Shown piece by piece: positions 2-11,121 of a stretch of 11,732 bases of DNA. The notes under the pieces were generated by a model, which saw only the letters and a list, made by a program, of their open reading frames with translations, was not told the DNA's origin and searched no databases. The DNA comes from an uncultured bacterium (lineage in GTDB: Bacteria > CSSED10-310 > CAZUFC01). The stretch is taken from positions 1 through 11,732 of the forward strand of contig CAZUFC010000194.1 of NCBI GenBank assembly GCA_964619725.1, read 5' to 3'. Numbering within the stretch: the first letter of the stretch is position 1; every line of letters starts with the position of its first letter. Position numbers and translations under genes: made by a program.

Positions 2-367
2 ATGACCGAGGATTTCAGCTAATGAATGTTTTCCAAGCAGTGACTGACCGCGAAATAATAAAATTTGTGTCGTGTCCTTTCTCTTGATTCGTGTGATTCG
101 TGAGATTCGTGGTTGAAAATAAACCTTTCCCGGTTCGAGGACCGACTTACATTTTTGCCGCCGTTTCCTTAACGATTTTTATCAGAACTGCAACCACGAA
201 TCCCCCGAATAAGATTGCAGACATGACCGTGAATTGAAACTGATGAATGTTTTCCAAGCAGTGACTGGCCGCGAAACAATTAATCTTTGCCGTGTCCTTC
301 TTTCTCCTGATTGGTGTGATTAGTGAGATTTGTGGTTAAAAATAAACCAATACCGGTTCAAGGACCG
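2..367. repeat. Two diverged tandem copies (period ~221-223 bp; 2-144 vs 223-367) of a non-coding repeat containing 3x 9-bp GATTCGTGN sub-repeats; copy 1 probably continues left of the window
   Basis: The 25-mer ATGAATGTTTTCCAAGCAGTGACTG is identical at 22-46 and 243-267. The alignment is collinear at roughly 80% by eye, from ATGACCG (2/223) to GGACCG (139-144/362-367). The 9-bp units lie at 86-112 and 309-335. Confidence 0.9.
192..337. repeat. REP/MITE-like element with terminal inverted repeats AACCACGAATC ... GATTTGTGGTT
   Basis: 192-202 AACCACGAATC is the reverse complement of 327-337 GATTTGTGGTT (1 mismatch) and of 104-114 GATTCGTGGTT (perfect). No target-site duplication is visible. 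Confidence 0.55.
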
Positions 368-3300
368 TAACTGAATACTGCGGAGTCGTAGTTTCCGATA
401 ATATCGGTCATGGCGTAGTTCAGGAGCGCTGCGTGGAATTTGATGCCCTGCATGGAGTCTTCGCCGGTATCGGGCCATATGAAGTTCAGGATATCGATGG
501 AGCGGCTGCCTGGGTTGAAGTCTACCGGTTCATAGTCGAAAGATTCCAGCCAATCGGGATAGTAGAAGAAGATACCGTGAACGTCCAGGAGAACTGCGAA
601 GGGTACGTTTTCAAGGGTATCGGGGCCTGGATTGTATAAAACAGCGTAAAGTTCGAAGGGGTCATTCGGGCAGAAGTAATCGGCATTGATGTGAAGTGTG
701 ATTCCCATAGGAGGATTCGGCGTGCAAGAGGGGGATACGGAGGGTTTCACCGTTTGCGTTATGGTTGGCTGTTCTGTCGGCTTAAAAGTAGGCGTTTCGG
801 GAGTGCATGATGGAGAAGGCGTCATTGAGGCTGTTGATGTCGGAGTCGGAGTCCGTGAGGGAGTTTTTGTGGGGGTTTCGGAACATGTTGGAGTTTTCGT
901 GGGAGATTGGGTCGGAGTTGTTGTTTGAGTCCATGTGGGGACTACTGTGGGTTCCATTGTCGGCGAGACGGTGGGATATGGGGTCGGAAAGGCTGTGACG
1001 ATGCGTTTAGCGTAGATGTTCGTGTCAGCATCGCCGTCGCGGGAGCTTATCCAGGCGACGAATATCTGGTCAGCGTCGTTGACTGCCAGTGAGGGAGCCC
1101 AGTCATGCCCGGAGCTCTGGACCGTTTGAATCGGTTCCTGCCATCCGGCGCCGGAATTTGATGTGAACCAGATATTTCGGGAATCGAAAGCATCCGTTTT
1201 TCTGTAGGCCAGGTGGACTGCGTTTGAGGAAGCGGCGATGGAGGGTTCCATAGGCGAGGCTGTGTAGTCAGGATCGACGATGCTGGGAGATGACCATGAA
1301 CTGAGGTTGCCGTGAACCGTTTTGACGGTCAATCCTTGGGAAGTACCGGAAACGTATGCGATCCAGATTTCGCCGTTGTCCGTCACAGTTGCGGAGGGAT
1401 CGAATGCATCTTCCTGTTCGTCCGAAAGAACCGTAACGGGCGTCCAGAATCCGTCAAGCTCATACCGGCATACGACTTCCCACCGTCCGGCATTACTGCG
1501 GCTCCAGATCAGGTGAACATTGTCTGCATCATCAACTATGCATAAAGGGTCCTGGTCGTCCGGACCGATCTCCGTAAGCCGACCAGGCGCAGACCAGTTT
1601 CCTCCCGATTCCGGTTTCGTCGAAAGATAAATATTGGCTTCGGCGTCGCGCCAGTTTTCCCAGAAAAGGTGTATTATGCCGTCGCTCAAACATGCTGCCG
1701 GTTTAATATCGTATCCCGGATCGTTAAGGATGAACTGAGTCGATCCCCAGTATGATCCTGTTCGCTCTGCGGTTTTCAATTCCTGGTCGTAAGTGGCGTA
1801 GTTGAAGCCAGCGAAGAAGGCTCTGACCCCATCGCCCGTCCTCAGAATCATGGGATTCTCCTCCCAGTATTCGTAACCGCTGATGTCGTCCGGCGTTTCC
1901 CATCCGCTGCCGTCGTATCTCGAAGCGCATGCGCTGCATCTGCCGTCCAGGGCGCTCAACCAGGTTAACCATAATTCTTCACCGGCGCCGCCGATCAAAT
2001 AAGGCGCGGCATCAGAATAACCGCTCGTGCTGACCTTCGTTTCTATCAAGGTTTCACATGCGGGACTATCGGCATCGGGAACGTTTTGATCGACCTCTTT
2101 CTTTACCGCATGCGGAACGGCGGATCGGGATTCCTTATAAATGCTTCGGTCTGTTATGTTTACTTTCAATGTAGGGTCTCCAATAATGTTCATACCGTAA
2201 AACCACATTTCGTCATAATAATCGAAACCGTCCGATGCTTCATACTGAAACCATTCCAGAAAAGCCTGCCCCAGACATTTGGCCTGCCCCAGAGGATAAT
2301 AGAACTCCTCAAAATCAAGCATGCTGCCCACTTTGGCGCTGCCTACAGCGGCCAGGCCTCGGTCCGGCCGGAATACGTACATGACGGCGATGTTGTCGAT
2401 TTCCACGAAGCGTGTGTTGGAACAGGCGAATAACTGGTAAAAAAGGGCATTCGGGTCCATAATGTCCAGGTCGTAATTCATGTAGCATCCCGCATAATCG
2501 TAATATCCGTCTTTAAAAGTATGCGCCCAGGGGCAGGAATGCGCCATAATATGCACCCATTCGTATCCGGTGATAAGCCTGTCGCGATAATTGGCCGCGG
2601 TCGTCTGTCCGTCCTGATTGATTACTGTAACGTCGGAATAAGCGTAATTCAGACCCACATTGGAATAGGGCCAGTCGTCGTCATTGAATGCCAGGGCCCT
2701 TTGGGGAACTCCCAGGCCTTCCGTCCGGTAAGTGTGAGCTTTATCGAAATAATTCCTGGTTAAAGATATTTCATAGTCCCAGCTTATATGATGAGCATTG
2801 ATACGGCCGACCCAGATTTCGGGTGAAACGGCTCCCGAATGGGAATCGTAAAGTCCGTCCGAGTTATTATCGGACCAATTGCCGTTGAGGTCCATGAAGT
2901 ACAGATCAATGGGAAATTCTTCTCCGTCGAAATGGTACCAGGCCAGGGGAGTTTTTCCGACAAAAACGGCTCCGGCCAATCCTTCCGGCAACCAGGTTTG
3001 AAGCAGCGCTTTTACATCTTCAGCCGTACCGCCGCCCAGCGACTGAGTTTCAACGTCATATCCTTCAGCCTCCAGGTCTGCTGCATAAGAGGTTAGCTCA
3101 CTCGTCAATAAAGTCGAGAGACGCTCATTGACAAGAATGAGAACCAGGGGATAATCCCGTATTTCCCGGCATCTTGATTTGAAAACCGGGCCCTCTTCCC
3201 GGGTGGAATACAGTTTTTCGCAACGGATGGATTCAAAGGGCGCGGAATTGAGCCGGTATTCATTATAAGTCAAAGGACTCCGGTTTAAAGGGTCCATCCA

Positions 3301-3408
3301 CTGCAAACGCTGCACTTCCTCAAGATTGCGTTTGCCGGATACAGGCTGCGCCGATATGGCCAGAATAAAAATTAGGGCGAAACTGATGAAATAATGACCG
3401 TTTTTCAT
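358..3408 (-). CDS. Secreted peptidase C25 (gingipain-like cysteine peptidase) + 7-repeat beta-propeller + Pro/Thr linker + conserved ~116-aa C-terminal domain
   Basis: 1016-aa ORF with RBS AAGGAG at 3420-3415 and a Sec signal peptide (MKNGHYFISFALIFILAISAQPVSG). C25 motifs: PEIWVGRI, HIMAH290S, LFAC329S (putative His/Cys dyad), GLAAVGS and IIGDPTL. aa ~465-805 hold seven ~50-aa repeats (P-x-hydrophobic...HLxW...IY...W-x-x-P). aa 808-900 are P/T/S-rich and aa 901-1016 form the CTD. Confidence 0.85.
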   Translation of the reverse strand: MKNGHYFISFALIFILAISAQPVSGKRNLEEVQRLQWMDPLNRSPLTYNEYRLNSAPFESIRCEKLYSTREEGPVFKSRCREIRDYPLVLILVNERLSTLLTSELTSYAADLEAEGYDVETQSLGGGTAEDVKALLQTWLPEGLAGAVFVGKTPLAWYHFDGEEFPIDLYFMDLNGNWSDNNSDGLYDSHSGAVSPEIWVGRINAHHISWDYEISLTRNYFDKAHTYRTEGLGVPQRALAFNDDDWPYSNVGLNYAYSDVTVINQDGQTTAANYRDRLITGYEWVHIMAHSCPWAHTFKDGYYDYAGCYMNYDLDIMDPNALFYQLFACSNTRFVEIDNIAVMYVFRPDRGLAAVGSAKVGSMLDFEEFYYPLGQAKCLGQAFLEWFQYEASDGFDYYDEMWFYGMNIIGDPTLKVNITDRSIYKESRSAVPHAVKKEVDQNVPDADSPACETLIETKVSTSGYSDAAPYLIGGAGEELWLTWLSALDGRCSACASRYDGSGWETPDDISGYEYWEENPMILRTGDGVRAFFAGFNYATYDQELKTAERTGSYWGSTQFILNDPGYDIKPAACLSDGIIHLFWENWRDAEANIYLSTKPESGGNWSAPGRLTEIGPDDQDPLCIVDDADNVHLIWSRSNAGRWEVVCRYELDGFWTPVTVLSDEQEDAFDPSATVTDNGEIWIAYVSGTSQGLTVKTVHGNLSSWSSPSIVDPDYTASPMEPSIAASSNAVHLAYRKTDAFDSRNIWFTSNSGAGWQEPIQTVQSSGHDWAPSLAVNDADQIFVAWISSRDGDADTNIYAKRIVTAFPTPYPTVSPTMEPTVVPTWTQTTTPTQSPTKTPTCSETPTKTPSRTPTPTSTASMTPSPSCTPETPTFKPTEQPTITQTVKPSVSPSCTPNPPMGITLHINADYFCPNDPFELYAVLYNPGPDTLENVPFAVLLDVHGIFFYYPDWLESFDYEPVDFNPGSRSIDILNFIWPDTGEDSMQGIKFHAALLNYAMTDIIGNYDSAVFSYGP

Positions 3409-5479: not shown

Positions 5480-7003
5480 TTGAAAGGCCGAACCCAAATC
5501 AGGAATAATGCTGATAAGGCTTTCATCATTCTCCTGGCTGTTCTGGGAGGATGCGCATATTTGCCGTTACAAAGCGCCGCTCCGTTCGAGTGGGACGATC
5601 ATCAGTTTTCCAGCGCGGTAATCGAATTCAACATGAACATACATCATCCGCATCCGCCGGGTTACCCTTTGTATGTAATGGCCGGACGGGCGCTGCTGCC
5701 GGCATCTCGCACCCCTGCAGCGGCGTTGACGCTTTTTACGGCCATATGTGCTGCGATATCGGGACCGCTTATATATTGGCTCTTCCGAAGGAGTTTTAAT
5801 CCGCTGCAAGCCTTGTCGGGCGCCGTGCTGATCCTGGTTCAACCCGTCTATTGGTTCACAAGCCTCAGGGCGGTCAGCGACGTTCCGGGATTGACTTTCG
5901 TCTTATTAACCGCTGCGGCAGCGACATCAAAACTGAAAGACAGGAGCGCCGTCATTGCTGTTGCGTTGCTCAGCGCCGTTGCCCTCGGCATCAGACCTTC
6001 CAATTCCCTCATACTTGCGCCGCTGATGTTATATTTTGTCGTCGAAAGATCATTATGGAAAAAGGCCGGGCTTTTCCTGACAGGATTGATATGCTTCAGC
6101 GCAGCCCTGGCGACCTGGCTCGTTCCGCTTATCCTCGACACCGGGGACTTAAAACGATTCCTCGAATTATTCGCCATTCAAAAAGAGTGGGCGGCAGAGC
6201 ATGACACGGTATTTGCCGCTTTTTCCGCGGAACGGCTGATCCGGGAACTGAGACTCGCCTTCGTCGATATCTGGGGTACGAAGAATTTTGCGATCTGGAT
6301 GAATCTGTTTATTATCCTCGGTATCGGCGGTTTTCTCTTCAAGGAAAAAAAGAAAAATAAAATTTTCTTTGCAGCGGTTTTCCTGCCCTATTTGCTCTAC
6401 TCTTATTTTTTTATGAACTCTTTTTTCATGAGATACGCAGTTCCAGCCATACCGTTTTTGGTCCTGCTCTTCATGTGGGGATTAAATTTTATTCTGGGAT
6501 TTTCCCGGTTCGGCAAGGAAAAACTTATTCCCTTCATTTGCGCGGTGACCGCAGCGATGTTTATAATTTGGTCTCTCCCTTCATTTTGGGAATTTCATTC
6601 TGAACCGCCGCCGGTTCAAAAAGCCTTTCAATGGATTATGCGCAACTACAAAACGGAGAATACAGTCGTATTAGTGAACCAGTCTTTGAGACCGCACAGA
6701 GATTACCTGTTTTCAGAAGATTACCGGGTTAAAGTCGTCAAAGCCCCGTTTTCCAGGCATAATAAGGAGAAAGTTAAAAATGTTTTGAGCGTGAAACAGT
6801 CCGGTAGAAGACCAAAGGAAGCTGTCCCGGGTTATGAATTACTCTTCGAAGCGATGTATGAAGGAAAAGTAATGCGCAGATTAAGCGCCGGAAGGTATCT
6901 ATGGTGTGGGGTCTACGGGATGGAGGATGCTTCGGAGACAGGCGCGGATAAACCTGTGGAAACCAGGCTGAACCATACTCCGGGACCCCGTACGATGAAA
7001 TGA
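5480..7003 (+). CDS. Polytopic membrane GT-C-fold glycosyltransferase, DUF2723 / TMEM260-like (lipid-linked sugar donor; putative protein O-glycosyltransferase)
   Basis: 507 aa with about 10-11 hydrophobic segments followed by a soluble C-terminal domain. The acidic EWDD motif follows TM1, then HPPGYPLY (5651-5674), which is typical of DUF2723. The TTG start lies 9 nt after the sppA stop with no clear RBS, so the start is uncertain. Confidence 0.7.
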   Translation: MKGRTQIRNNADKAFIILLAVLGGCAYLPLQSAAPFEWDDHQFSSAVIEFNMNIHHPHPPGYPLYVMAGRALLPASRTPAAALTLFTAICAAISGPLIYWLFRRSFNPLQALSGAVLILVQPVYWFTSLRAVSDVPGLTFVLLTAAAATSKLKDRSAVIAVALLSAVALGIRPSNSLILAPLMLYFVVERSLWKKAGLFLTGLICFSAALATWLVPLILDTGDLKRFLELFAIQKEWAAEHDTVFAAFSAERLIRELRLAFVDIWGTKNFAIWMNLFIILGIGGFLFKEKKKNKIFFAAVFLPYLLYSYFFMNSFFMRYAVPAIPFLVLLFMWGLNFILGFSRFGKEKLIPFICAVTAAMFIIWSLPSFWEFHSEPPPVQKAFQWIMRNYKTENTVVLVNQSLRPHRDYLFSEDYRVKVVKAPFSRHNKEKVKNVLSVKQSGRRPKEAVPGYELLFEAMYEGKVMRRLSAGRYLWCGVYGMEDASETGADKPVETRLNHTPGPRTMK

Positions 7004-7008
7004 GCAGT

Positions 7009-7041
7009 CCGGCTGACGCCGGCAGCTTACAGCCCTTTTTT
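7009..7041 (+). terminator. Possible weak intrinsic terminator after the GT-C gene
   Basis: A short GC-rich stem (CCGGC-TGAC-GCCGG at 7009-7022, or GGCTG/CAGCC at 7011-7015/7030-7034) precedes T6 at 7036-7041. Confidence 0.3.
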
Positions 7042-7245
7042 ATTCGTTCTGGTTGACTAACTGTTTTCGGTCCGGAAACCGCTCTTTTTCCCTGGCGCTG
7101 CGTCAGGCTGCGAATTGGGTTCAACGGATAACCAGGCCGCCTCCTTCGCAAATCACAGCTTGCATTAAAATTTTAACAGGGTATCGAGTTTATGGAAAGC
7201 CTCAAATTAAAATGCCTGGTATATCAGCGCATGCGGGACGGGTCT

Positions 7246-8319
7246 TTAAAGAATTTTTCGGAGGACCGGAGTATTTCGAACGATCTGGGATGCGAGAAGG
7301 CTTAAGAGTAAAGTCAATCCTGCGATAAAGGGCACGACGGCGGGATGTATCATATTCAATGTAACGTAAAAAAACACTCCGACATGGCTGAGAATATAGG
7401 GATCATGAAGAAGATAAACGGGCCAGGCGTTTTTACCCAGAAAGCGGAGGATGCCGGGGCCTCGCATGAATCCCCAGGCCGGGAAAGGCAATACCAGGGC
7501 TAAAGGCAATGAAATTTGGATGATAAGTTCCGCATAATGAATCATAGCGGCATTCAGGCTGAGCGAACGGATGGCCATTGCGATTACGGTCAGAAAGACG
7601 GCGGAAATCGCTGGTATTCGCAATCCCCGTGGATTTCTCTCAGCAAGTCTCTCGCTTATGATGCTTCCCATATCGTAGATCAGCAGGAAACGGAGATAAT
7701 TCAACGGGTAAAAAAGATCATTCCAGGGGATGACAAAAAAAAGCGCTGCACCGGTGATCAGGCGGATGATGTTCCAGGGAATGAATTTCCGCCAAATTGG
7801 ATATGAAATGCTGACTATGAACAGCATCAGGAGGAACCAGAGCTGATAAGCCGGATTCAAAGGCGTCAGAAGCATTTGGAAGAAGTGAGCCCCGGACTCG
7901 ATAGGAAAGGCTGTTAAACCTGTTCCGTATTTTTCGTTTAATATGAAAAAGATTTGTCCCATAATGATATACAGCAGGGTAAAAATGAAATAGGGCCTGA
8001 TGACGCGCCGGGTTCGATTCTTCAAATATGAAAGATAACCGATATCGCCGGAGCTGATGGATTTCAAGCCGAATTTTATGCCCGATATAAATACGAAAAC
8101 ACTGATCGAAAACCTCATCAAAGAATCCAGGAGCCTGTAGTCGAGTTCGTGGTGCACGAGGGCAAGAGAAGCGCCGCAGCCGACCACGGTATAATTGGCC
8201 AGGGAGTGAAGCATAATAACCCGAAGTATAGCCAAACCCGCAACAGCATCCAGATAATGAAGATAAATTCTTGAGTTTTGAGTTGCGCTTTTCATTTTCT
8301 TTGCACCTTGACCCATCAC
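7246..8319 (-). CDS. Acyltransferase family 3 (OafA/WecH-like membrane O-acyltransferase), AT3-only; true start possibly ATG at 8295
   Basis: About 10 TM segments. AT3 motifs: YLDAVAGLAILRVIMLH, FVFISG, KNRTRRVIRPY (RxxR), YQLWFL and FLGKNAWPVYLLH. AAGGTG precedes the ATG at 8295. Confidence 0.88.
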   Translation of the reverse strand: MMGQGAKKMKSATQNSRIYLHYLDAVAGLAILRVIMLHSLANYTVVGCGASLALVHHELDYRLLDSLMRFSISVFVFISGIKFGLKSISSGDIGYLSYLKNRTRRVIRPYFIFTLLYIIMGQIFFILNEKYGTGLTAFPIESGAHFFQMLLTPLNPAYQLWFLLMLFIVSISYPIWRKFIPWNIIRLITGAALFFVIPWNDLFYPLNYLRFLLIYDMGSIISERLAERNPRGLRIPAISAVFLTVIAMAIRSLSLNAAMIHYAELIIQISLPLALVLPFPAWGFMRGPGILRFLGKNAWPVYLLHDPYILSHVGVFFYVTLNMIHPAVVPFIAGLTLLLSLLASQIVRNTPVLRKIL

Positions 8320-8956: not shown

Positions 8957-10966
8957 ATGAAATTAAAATCACTGTCGCTTTCGCAGCCTTATCTTTCGAA
9001 TAAGCGGAAATTATGGTCGACTGTCGTCTTTCTGATGTTCGTGATCATGATGAACGCAGGGATATGCGCCGGATCAACGTACTATTCGGATTATTGCGAT
9101 CCCGGCGCGGACGATTCAGGACCCGGGACAATGGAGCAGCCCTGGCGCCATTGTCCGGGGATGCCGGGATGGGAAGGGACGATTCAATTGAATGGCGGCG
9201 ACGTCGTGTATTTTTGCAACAGCAGCGTCTGGGAGGTTTCCGAAGGCGACAGCGGTATTCAGATCACAGGCGGCGTAACTTATGACGGTAAGAGTTGGGG
9301 TTCGGGCAGTCGTGCGACTTTACGCGCTATGGATGAGTTATCCCGTGCTGTGATTAACGTCATGGAGGACCATCCTACTGAAGAAACAGTTATCCGGGGT
9401 TTCGAGGTGGATGCCGGCAACAAGGCCACATCAGGGATTACGATGAACTGGCCGCATATGCAGCGGGATTTGACAGGGGCTATGAAAAGGGTCGAGGACT
9501 GCGTGGTGCATGACGTCAGCAGTCGGTCGAACCTTAATCAATATGAATACGGCATCCTGATAGGCGGCTGGTTCGGATATCGCACCAGTAACGTGGAGAT
9601 ACTGGATTGTCTGGTATATGACGTTTCCCGCGTTGGCATTGCCTGTTATCCCGGCAACGACGTTCCGGAAAACCATGTGGAGAACGTGGTCATCAGGGGT
9701 TGCGAGGTTTACAATGCCGGACTCGATCCCGATTCGCCCGGAGCAGGATTCGGCATAGCGCTCAAGAACCATGTGGCGAATGCCGTGGTTGAATATAATT
9801 ATCTTCACCAGGCAAAGGTTTCCGGCATTGTGTTGACTTGTCATCCTGAACCGGGGTTCCGGGGTCCTGAAAATGCTGTGATCAGGCATAATATAGTTCA
9901 CAATTGCCGTCAATGGGGCATTTACCTGGAGAAATCCGGCGACAAGAGCGCTGCGATTTACGGCAATCTGATTTTTCATAACGCCTATGAGGGAATACTG
10001 CTGGCATCTTCGTTGAGCGACGGGCTTTCACTGAGCATCTTCAACAATACTCTTTATCATAACTATCAATTGGATTGGTCCCAGGAGGTTCGAATATCGA
10101 GCAGCAATGCGGAGATTGATTATCTTGATTTCAGCAACAACTTGATTTACGCGTCCGGGATGACGCGTTGCCTGCTTGACGACGATAACGAAATAACGTC
10201 TCATTCGAATAATTTATACTACCGGGAGCACGGAGCGGCTCTCGTCGTGGTCGGCGATGAAGGATATACCGCTGACACCATTGCAGAGTGGGAACCCACG
10301 GCCCTTACAGGAAATCCGAAACTGGTCGACGTCACATCCCTGCCTTCCGGGTTCTCCGGCGTTTACGGAGTGGACCTCGAACCGAACGCCGAGGGATTGA
10401 ACATTGCTCCTCTCTCGTCCGCCCTGGATTACGGAATCCCGCTGGGAGAATCATACAACACAAGCATCAACAGCATACAGCGTCCCGCAGGCGACGGCTG
10501 GGACCTGGGTGCATATGAGCGGAGTGCAGCTCCGACACCGGAACCTACGGCGACCCCCGCGGAATTCTCCCCCACTCCCTCGCCGCCGCCTCTGGGCGTG
10601 AGAATCATTCTGTCGACTGAATACGTCCGTCCCGGCGAACTTTTCTATGTATGGGCTTACCTGGACAATCCGGGTCCCTCCATGTTGACGGATATCCCCC
10701 TGTTTTTCATGCTGGGCGTCTACGGAGAATACTGGTTCTGGCCAAGCTGGAGCGCCGGCGAGTCGCCCGAACAGGAAGGAATGGATTTCCAATACCGTGA
10801 CATACCCCCGGGATCGACATTCGTCAATGTTCTGCCGGCATTCGCCTGGCCCGATACCGGCACGCTTGAAATGACAGGCCTGATTTTTTACGGCGCCATG
10901 CTGGACCAATCCTTCGCTTTTGTTCTCGGACAACCGGCCATACAAGTTTGGGGCTTCGGTCCCTGA
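8957..10966 (+). CDS. Secreted right-handed parallel beta-helix (pectin-lyase-like) protein with choice-of-anchor-Q-like motif, Pro/Thr linker and conserved ~124-aa C-terminal domain
   Basis: 669 aa with a long signal peptide ending about NAGICAG. N-cap TYY...GADDSGPGTMEQPW. PbH1-like repeats: NVEILDCLVYD, NVVIRGCEVYN, NAVVEYNYLH, NAVIRHNIVHN, IYGNLIFHN and IFNNTLYHN. Closing motif SSALDYG...RPAGDGWDLGAYE. Linker at 10523-10591, CTD at 10592-10963. Confidence 0.85.
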   Translation: MKLKSLSLSQPYLSNKRKLWSTVVFLMFVIMMNAGICAGSTYYSDYCDPGADDSGPGTMEQPWRHCPGMPGWEGTIQLNGGDVVYFCNSSVWEVSEGDSGIQITGGVTYDGKSWGSGSRATLRAMDELSRAVINVMEDHPTEETVIRGFEVDAGNKATSGITMNWPHMQRDLTGAMKRVEDCVVHDVSSRSNLNQYEYGILIGGWFGYRTSNVEILDCLVYDVSRVGIACYPGNDVPENHVENVVIRGCEVYNAGLDPDSPGAGFGIALKNHVANAVVEYNYLHQAKVSGIVLTCHPEPGFRGPENAVIRHNIVHNCRQWGIYLEKSGDKSAAIYGNLIFHNAYEGILLASSLSDGLSLSIFNNTLYHNYQLDWSQEVRISSSNAEIDYLDFSNNLIYASGMTRCLLDDDNEITSHSNNLYYREHGAALVVVGDEGYTADTIAEWEPTALTGNPKLVDVTSLPSGFSGVYGVDLEPNAEGLNIAPLSSALDYGIPLGESYNTSINSIQRPAGDGWDLGAYERSAAPTPEPTATPAEFSPTPSPPPLGVRIILSTEYVRPGELFYVWAYLDNPGPSMLTDIPLFFMLGVYGEYWFWPSWSAGESPEQEGMDFQYRDIPPGSTFVNVLPAFAWPDTGTLEMTGLIFYGAMLDQSFAFVLGQPAIQVWGFGP

Positions 10967-11121
10967 TTTGAAATGAACTCGTCAAAAGCCTCCACTCCGA
11001 TGCAAAGGAAATCGGGAATATAGAAGCCCGCCCGACGCAGGACCGATAACCTGTAGGCTTTTTCCCCGACACGGACGCGTTCCCCTTCGCCGATCTCAGA
11101 TATGTCCAAAATATAAGTCAT
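10967..11121 (-). pseudogene. Truncated N-terminal fragment (~50 codons) of a PEP/pyruvate-binding (PPDK_N; PEP synthase / rifampicin phosphotransferase-like) protein
   Basis: MTYILDISEI...VGEKAYRLSVLRRAGFYIPDFLCIGVEAFDEF fits the family pattern VGGKxxxLxxLxxxGxxVPxGFxIxxxAFxxF. Its ATG overlaps the TGA of the upstream gene (ATGA, 11121-11118). Similarity ends where the convergent gene's stop lies, and the frame runs on antisense to 10888. Confidence 0.75.

Follow-up and report, generated by a model that had tools for sequence, protein, structure and literature searches.

Several described classes of module at the ends of secreted bacterial proteins form the background to the domain considered here, two copies of which are encoded in an 11,732-nucleotide stretch of DNA from an uncultured bacterium (contig CAZUFC010000194.1 of assembly GCA_964619725.1, GTDB lineage CSSED10-310), referred to below in its full length as the window. 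The type A C-terminal domain (CTD) of type IX secretion systems (T9SS), also known as Por_Secre_tail (PF18962/TIGR04183), is a small immunoglobulin (Ig)-like sandwich that ends leader-bearing peptidases, adhesins, and glycosidases and occurs in many paralogues per genome. In T9SS, whose machinery includes PorU, PorV, SprA, and PorKLMN, a sortase removes this domain and the cargo becomes linked to anionic LPS. Dockerin type I (PF00404), which is a helical pair of calcium-binding repeats of about 60–70 aa, the carbohydrate-binding module (CBM) CBM3, and SLH are noncatalytic modules that localize many enzymes from behind linkers, with dockerin usually C-terminal and tolerated at the N terminus as well. 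The tripartite signals LPXTG, PEP-CTERM, and MYXO-CTERM comprise about 30–40 residues that include a motif, a transmembrane helix, and a basic tail.

The domain in the window resembles the T9SS type A CTD in the kinds of leader-bearing proteins that carry it and in its many paralogues, and perhaps in its predicted small Ig-like sandwich, a very common class of fold; with dockerin, CBM3, and SLH it shares a noncatalytic nature and a place behind linkers. It also differs from each of these. At about 115–125 residues (116 and 124 in the two window copies), it is a folded domain rather than a short tripartite signal and is longer than the T9SS CTD models, which span 72–75 positions; it is acidic and lacks their basic last strand; and N-terminal, internal, and stand-alone copies exist. 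It constitutes an undescribed domain family inside this known class of terminal localization modules, and one that is worth a curated model. Its role as a localization module in the general sense is well supported. The mechanism that we favor, noncovalent attachment to a common extracellular target, probably a polymer that the producer has in its envelope or matrix, is given a probability of about 0.45.

Two homologous domains on unrelated passengers

The first carrier in the window, P0001 (358..3408, minus strand, 1016 aa), is composed of a leader, a C25-like peptidase region, a repeat-rich middle, a Pro/Thr linker, and the terminal domain, as read from the list of open reading frames (ORFs) and the translation. 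Its hydrophobic leader (3334..3408, minus strand, about aa 1–25) reads in the translation as a putative Sec signal peptide, and its Pro/Thr-rich linker (709..996, minus strand, aa 805–900) leads into the domain (361..708, minus strand, aa 901–1016; hidden Markov model (HMM) E = 8.7e-39), with the stop codon at 358–360. The second, P0002 (8957..10966, plus strand, 669 aa), combines a leader (8957..9073, plus strand, about aa 1–39, with a hydrophobic core at aa 20–37 read from the translation), a right-handed β-helix passenger (PF13229, E = 3.3e-13), a segment resembling choice-of-anchor-Q (10406..10522, plus strand, aa 484–522; NF041518, E = 0.008 and 16.4 bits, under the 25-bit cut-off), a short Pro/Thr-rich linker directly behind that segment (10523..10591, plus strand, aa 523–545, from the translation and from a BLASTP alignment of linker and domain), and the domain itself (10592..10963, plus strand, aa 546–669; HMM E = 3.3e-46), followed by the stop codon at 10964–10966. 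Two minus-strand ORFs, 10451–10945 (164 aa) and 10824–11072 (82 aa), overlap the P0002 domain; they are taken as spurious because the plus-strand reading has about 1900 homologues.

Comparison of their sequences identifies the two tails as homologous. BLASTP aligns them with 39 identities in 124 positions (31%), 70 positives, and two gaps covering 8 positions (77.8 bits, E = 1e-24), and the identity in a MAFFT alignment is 34%. Their local alignment score of 202 compares with 29.8 ± 5.4 (maximum 58) in 1000 shuffles, so that z = 31.7. When the full-length proteins are compared, BLASTP aligns the linker and tail alone (E = 6e-22), the next segment having an E-value of 0.74, and the passengers are for this reason regarded as unrelated. 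A sequence-only reading of the window, which had proposed a shared terminal domain on two unrelated secreted proteins with a common layout of leader, passenger, Pro/Thr linker, and domain, is thus borne out; the layout is visible in both translations, and the coordinates and level of identity given there were correct, with the ranges 358..708 and up to 10966 including the stop codons.

The passenger of P0001 is less securely named than that of P0002. Its peptidase region matches PF01364 with E = 0.0062 and 16.3 bits over aa 162–416, which does not reach the 23-bit cut-off, so that as judged from its sequence the "C25 peptidase" label is weak for P0001 itself; its homologues P0163 (30 bits) and P0176 (28.1 bits) lie above that cut-off.

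A large family without a catalog entry

A profile of the two tails, compared with 1.84 billion cluster representatives, matches 1911 of them at E ≤ 1e-3; of these, 919 remain at E ≤ 1e-10 and 14 at E ≤ 1e-30. In a scan of genomes, nine loci were obtained from four metagenome-assembled genomes (MAGs): L001–L007 belong to two related assemblies named "uncultured bacterium," L008 to a MAG of candidate division CSSED10-310, and L009 to a Hydrogenedentota MAG in which the match is confined to the passenger. When ORFs from all six frames of L001–L008 (three MAGs) were searched with an HMM, 26 further copies of the domain were found, often in adjacent genes. These copies, found in about 140 kb, agree with the many paralogues that had been anticipated, and the suggestion of similar tails in CSSED10-310 genomes was right: besides L008, the best homologue of P0001 (P0163, 43% identity), whose source name begins "candidate division CSSED1," carries the domain.

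Across 156 aligned domains, W53, W86, and P87 (numbered as in the P0002 domain) are conserved in 100% of sequences, G74 in 97%, L41 and G113 in 96%, A102 in 94%, and N26 in 93%; the motifs that had been listed from the two window copies prove to be these conserved positions. The loop after W53 has 11 residues in 88 of the 156 domains, 4 in 36, and 7 in 16, and the two window copies represent one of each main subtype, the short-loop type in P0001 and the long-loop type in P0002. The P0002 domain is 50–54% identical to the domains of P0007–P0012.

In the catalogs searched (Pfam and NCBIfam), this large family has no entry, which agrees with the earlier supposition that no described family accounts for it. 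The two window domains have no match in Pfam at E ≤ 10 or in NCBIfam at E ≤ 1. When 30 family members were compared singly with both libraries, nothing significant was found, the one weak match being to MG4 in 2 of the 30 (E = 0.043), and in scans of 129 full-length carriers (65 + 64) no Pfam or NCBIfam family covers the domain. By sequence, the best match of the family profile in the PDB has E = 0.096 (a macroglobulin domain of cobra venom factor), and the P0001 copy has none. Language-model scores in the ESM Atlas are all below 0.9, and the top 30 clusters have no Pfam family in common; the nearest named clusters, CARDB at 0.76–0.78 and CARDB/RbmA-like ones overall at 0.76–0.79, are leads only. 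Three motif strings of the domain do not occur in the 8.4 million full texts searched, a search on conserved C-terminal domains in candidate phyla gave nothing relevant among the 15 papers listed of 249, and the main text of the CSSED10-310 genome announcement mentions neither secretion nor the domain.

Predicted fold and conserved loops

With a 30-sequence alignment, AlphaFold2 returns an eight-strand all-β model for both copies, with a predicted local distance difference test score of 94.8 and a predicted template modeling score of 0.85 for the P0002 domain and of 97.5 and 0.87 for that of P0001. The models suggest an Ig-like β-sandwich that would fold autonomously, in keeping with the β-sandwich that had been proposed from sequence. 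As had also been stated, transmembrane helix and basic tail are lacking: the models are all-β, and the window domains contain 2–3 K+R versus 13–17 D+E. Aromatic residues (F+W+Y) make up 18–19% of them. Identity with the tripartite signals was rejected on the helix-free models, the 2–3 K+R, a chain that ends in G-P, and the lack of a match in NCBIfam. Identity with dockerin was rejected likewise, since neither the window domains nor the 30 members match PF00404 and the new domain is all-β.

Foldseek searches against the PDB give loose matches to Ig-like sandwiches, with template modeling (TM) scores of at most 0.65. For the P0001 copy, the highest scores, 0.60–0.65, are those of the FnIII-type domains of RbmA from Vibrio cholerae (4kkp, 4kkq; E = 1.4e-3 and 3.3e-3), at 11–14% identity. 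RbmA belongs to the secreted matrix proteins and is said to attach to exopolysaccharide and to cells, a task like the one proposed below for the new domain, although it is a stand-alone protein of two such domains and not an enzyme tag. CARDB (PF07705) is the best or a near-best structural neighbor of both copies, represented by PF1109 of P. furiosus (2kl6, 3idu; TM score relative to the query 0.51–0.59, root-mean-square deviation 4.0–4.4 Å, E = 2.8e-4 to 3.4e-3), and it shows a similar strand followed by an N-x-G turn. None of the 30 members matches PF07705 at E ≤ 1, however, and with TM scores below 0.6, deviations of about 4 Å, and 10–18% identity, the models indicate at best that the two share the same superfold. 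Macroglobulin domains of complement follow at TM scores of about 0.5; other neighbors are Der p 2, RhoGDI, a porphyran-binding CBM, and the carbohydrate-binding domain of Wzt, with the CBM-like ones at 0.44–0.53.

From the strand order in the secondary-structure strings of the models, the N-P-G turn, the W-F-W-P-x-W motif, the W-P-D-T-G loop, and the terminal G-Y-G-P are predicted to lie at one pole of the sandwich together with both termini, and the variable loops would lie at the opposite pole.

The slot shared with known modules

The general role of the domain is best seen from what stands in its place in homologues of the two passengers. With the P0001 passenger (aa 30–800) as query, 44 homologues were obtained at 29–43% identity over most of its length. 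The new domain is found in 1 of the 44, and in 19 of them precomputed annotation places the T9SS CTD (PF18962), which was confirmed at the extreme C terminus in P0174, P0176, P0184, and P0200; P0203 exceeds the TIGR04183 cut-off, again with the match at the extreme C terminus. Five of the 44, from MAGs named Zixiibacteriota, have a C-terminal dockerin instead.

For the P0002 passenger (query aa 40–525), 119 homologues were listed. Of these, 62 end no more than 20 residues beyond the passenger and 49 extend more than 60 residues past it; one (P0214) has the new domain, four (P0211, P0246, P0267, P0286) exceed the TIGR04183 cut-off, two (P0260, P0255) reach the cut-off for MYXO-CTERM (TIGR03901), and two (P0258, P0265) carry dockerin and CBM3 at the N terminus. 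In these homologues the terminal devices adjoin a choice-of-anchor-Q segment (NF041518) that is above cut-off there, and such a segment precedes the new domain above cut-off in 5 of 21 domain-bearing proteins of the loci. The term "choice-of-anchor" is used for domains of surface proteins that are anchored by alternative devices (bioRxiv 10.1101/2023.03.06.531300). The tripartite signals of P0260, P0255, and the L009 protein stand behind this segment in the same slot. The last of these, a 1743-aa Hydrogenedentota β-helix protein (L009 5300–10531, plus strand), has in common with P0002 the choice-of-anchor-Q-like segment only, and it ends in Asp-rich repeats, a transmembrane helix, and an Arg-rich tail, a sorting signal of tripartite type. 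Many other P0002 passenger homologues (P0207–P0230 and others) have an fn3 domain and, after it, some 20 conserved residues enriched in V-M-P-T-D and L-P-L-V. This tail, which may be another unannotated C-terminal signal, is matched by neither Pfam nor NCBIfam in P0207 and P0222, the two proteins scanned.

Sequence comparison thus indicates that the new domain is positionally interchangeable with a secretion-and-anchoring signal, with membrane-anchoring signals, and with a scaffold-binding module. Because homologous passengers carry a T9SS type A CTD, MYXO-CTERM, or dockerin there, it is considered to be a localization module in the general sense. The same evidence bears on how it would work. 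The main alternative to attachment, improbable on balance, is that it is a secretion or sorting signal, that is, a folded domain recognized in the periplasm by an outer-membrane machine (a diverged T9SS or an undescribed one) and perhaps removed afterward. For both window passengers, homologues have a T9SS type A CTD where the new domain stands, and it is predicted to have an Ig-like sandwich fold, as such CTDs do; both points speak for this possibility, whereas direct similarity is wanting. None of the 30 members, and neither window domain, matches PF18962 or TIGR04183 at E ≤ 1, an hhalign comparison of the 156 domains with 25 T9SS tails gives a probability of 0.7% over 12 columns, and by these profile comparisons the domain is not a T9SS CTD. 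No T9SS CTD structure is among the best 48 and best 50 Foldseek matches listed for the two copies; as a class, such folds are too common to be telling.

Position in the carriers

The carriers compiled here are 158 proteins, including the two of the window; position counts use the 140 that exceed 175 aa, the 18 shorter sequences being mostly fragments at contig edges. The domain is C-terminal in 129 of the 140, and in 117 of these 129 the chain ends within two residues of the domain (in 69 exactly at its end), a strong bias that would suit a sorting signal. The expectation that the domain is always C-terminal thus held for most carriers and failed for the rest: in 7 of the 140 (P0010, P0016, P0020, P0021, P0058, P0141, P0152) it is N-terminal, directly after the leader; in 4 it is internal (P0015, P0104) or followed by a C-terminal tail of 22–23 aa (P0080, P0153); and P0066 consists of leader and domain with nothing else. 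The passengers of the seven N-terminal carriers are FGE-sulfatase in three, GH31 in one, and unassigned in the others, and 2 of the 26 locus copies are also N-terminal, one of them fused to CpeT. A tree of the 156 domains is poorly resolved, with 6 of 153 branches starred, and is compatible with a single origin of N-terminal placement; since the passengers differ, we argue for several. In a further carrier, P0070 (440 aa), the leader is followed by the second half of the domain and then by its first half; beyond an unrelated stretch and a Pro/Thr linker, the chain closes with a complete copy. The partial copies reflect either rearrangement or permutation or an error of assembly.

By a crude hydropathy rule, a leader is present in 111 of 139 family members, and many of the others look truncated at the 5' end. 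In the 30 residues upstream of C-terminal copies, the median fraction of Pro plus Thr is 0.47 versus a background of 0.155; 35 of 127 C-terminal copies lack a Pro/Thr linker.

Placement also bears on whether the domain does anything specific. It might be a passive Ig-like spacer or stabilizer with no targeting role, given that secreted bacterial proteins commonly contain Ig-like domains as fillers and that the fold matches are generic. Yet spacers are found between domains rather than as the last element after a flexible linker, the loop motifs do not vary among 156 diverse copies, and the domain can take the place of sorting and anchoring modules and in P0066 stands with a leader alone, all of which makes a purely structural role the most improbable of the explanations considered.

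Passengers and genomic neighborhoods

In the 129 carriers scanned, the domain is attached to a wide range of passengers, and the claim that it occurs on diverse leader-bearing proteins is upheld. Peptidases of the S8, M23, M28, M1, S15, C25, and C11 families are found together with other enzymes (Porphyromonas-type arginine deiminase (PAD_porph), FGE-sulfatase, GH31, GHL10, Metallophos, and Amidohydro_3), repeat or adhesin-like proteins (BNR (BNR_2) and sialidase-like propellers, FG-GAP, Kelch, β-helix/PMP, and lamin-tail domains (LTD)), and plastocyanin-like and cohesin domains.

This diversity is relevant to a second explanation, according to which the domain, as a CBM-type module, would bind not the surface of the producer but a polymer outside it, for example detrital polysaccharide or biofilm matrix, and so concentrate enzymes on food particles. 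CBMs typically have Pro/Thr linkers and may stand at either end of a protein, and both features are seen here. The 18–19% of aromatic residues with invariant Trp in loops, the presence of the porphyran-binding CBM, the Wzt domain, and RbmA among the fold neighbors, and some glycosidase passengers (GH31, GHL10, BNR_2) are also as such a module would have them. The passengers have no shared substrate, however, most being peptidases, adhesin-like β-helices, FG-GAP proteins, and cohesin scaffolds, and the slot in homologues holds cell-anchoring devices rather than CBMs, the exceptions being the two proteins with CBM3 and dockerin. Binding to an external polymer is on these grounds unlikely.

The cohesins raise a third. 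In L008 1–11130 (contig PWNJ01000075.1), four successive genes encode proteins with the domain at their end, and three of these proteins contain seven cohesin-like modules that are 76–85% identical to one another, so that the locus looks like a scaffoldin-like gene cluster; no dockerin is found on that contig or in the 75 locus ORFs scanned. The domain could accordingly dock to protein, either as a dockerin-like partner of cohesins in the same lineages or by self-association into an enzyme complex, as is also suggested by the P0001 homologues from the Zixiibacteriota-named MAGs, where a dockerin takes this slot. Against such docking, the cohesin proteins themselves carry the domain, which then acts like the anchoring end of a scaffold and not like an enzyme-borne plug; the window encodes no cohesin, and the all-β fold is unlike the helical dockerin. 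We consider it very improbable.

The neighborhoods offer several points on the possibility of a sorting signal. The carrier MAGs encode TolC-like OEP, Omp85, FadL, and RND pumps and are for this reason taken to be diderm, so that leader-bearing enzymes would need a route across the outer membrane; the cargo list is T9SS-like, and each genome has many paralogues. In L001, a FadL-family outer-membrane barrel (6820–8166, plus strand) is encoded 1.2 kb upstream of a gene for the domain and weakly matches PorV_fam, the PorV/PorQ family (49.5 bits, cut-off 90). It is nevertheless a better FadL (PF03349, E = 3.6e-33) than PorV and is missing from the syntenic L003. In the neighboring ORFs (75 compared with Pfam, 55 with NCBIfam), no T9SS, sortase, or secretin component is above cut-off, which for flanks of about 140 kb says little. 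Nor does any conserved partner gene recur in these ORFs, which hold a mixture of RND efflux systems, transporters, peptidases, and regulators. The interpretation offered with the sequence-only reading is therefore partly supported, in distinction to its observation, which is confirmed: a targeting or attachment role is favored by the slot that the domain shares with the T9SS type A CTD, MYXO-CTERM, and dockerin, whereas a lineage-specific secretion system finds no machinery beside any copy.

Proposed attachment to a common extracellular target

In the mechanism that we favor, the passenger would be exported by its Sec leader, and the module, usually on a flexible Pro/Thr linker, would fold after export and hold the passenger noncovalently at one common extracellular target. 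The likeliest target would be a polymer, for example a surface glycan, that belongs to the envelope or matrix of the producer itself, and the likely binding site the cluster of conserved loops predicted at one pole of the sandwich. The domain would in this case be neither cleaved off nor threaded through a machine. A folded, noncovalent attachment is preferred to a threaded C-terminal signal because N-terminal, internal, and stand-alone copies exist, copies that equally count against a sorting signal; known C-terminal signals are not known to be position-tolerant. Tolerance of either end fits binding modules, given that dockerin and CBM3 are N-terminal in P0258 and P0265. An attachment module is further favored because the domain is predicted to fold on its own, has Ig-like domains with adhesive or binding roles as its fold neighbors, and has a conserved cluster of aromatic loops, and because it sits at the anchoring end of the cohesin scaffolds.

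Several findings weigh against this mechanism. The domain is C-terminal in the great majority of carriers, the passengers (C25, PAD_porph, S8, M28, and PMP-like β-helices) resemble T9SS cargo, and, of the alternatives in its slot, the T9SS CTD is the one most often found. Its structural neighbors are of a generic kind, with PDB matches at E ≤ 1e-3 numbering 1 and 4 for the two copies, and the argument from a common pole relies on predicted topology rather than on coordinates. Binding itself is inferred, and the neighboring genes, lacking a conserved partner, are silent either way.

A more specific proposal joins export with attachment. The domain might be the cargo tag of an undescribed pathway for both, at the outer membrane, which would replace T9SS in CSSED10-310-like bacteria; recognition as a folded domain would then explain how it functions at the N terminus too. 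We regard this proposal as unlikely.

Other genes of the window

The window contains six clear genes. Besides those for the two carriers, these encode a full-length SppA signal peptide peptidase (P0003, 3743..5470, plus strand; TIGR00705, 332 bits, above cut-off), a PMT_2 glycosyltransferase of the GT-C type (P0004, 5480..7003, plus strand; PF13231, E = 7.6e-11), an acyltransferase_3 protein (P0005, 7246..8319, minus strand), and a PNPOx-like protein (P0006, 11118..11570, minus strand). Scans of the window for Rfam families, tRNAs, and tandem repeats gave no matches. The SppA gene adjoins that of P0001, a large leader-bearing protein, and the PMT_2 and acyltransferase_3 genes are placed between the two genes whose products have Pro/Thr linkers. 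Such linkers are classic sites of O-glycosylation, and glycosylation by the PMT_2 transferase is conceivable; the domain genes of L001–L008 have no PMT_2 gene in their vicinity.

Implications

Terminal localization modules set where bacterial enzymes and adhesins end up and provide a handle for predicting secretomes from genomes. A family of ~1900 clusters that is invisible to the versions of Pfam and NCBIfam searched here means that its carriers are annotated by their passengers only or as hypothetical proteins. A family model would improve prediction of secretomes and surface proteomes in uncultured phyla and would supply a clean marker for profiling against candidate machinery. As a small domain that is predicted to fold confidently and that tolerates either end of a chain, it is also a practical tag for experiments. 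If the domain proved to be an export tag, it would be a modular, transferable secretion tag with a new, or long-sought type II-like, mechanism of recognition; and if its partner is a new translocon or an envelope polymer, the family would open a way, so far undescribed, in which diderm bacteria display proteins on their surface.

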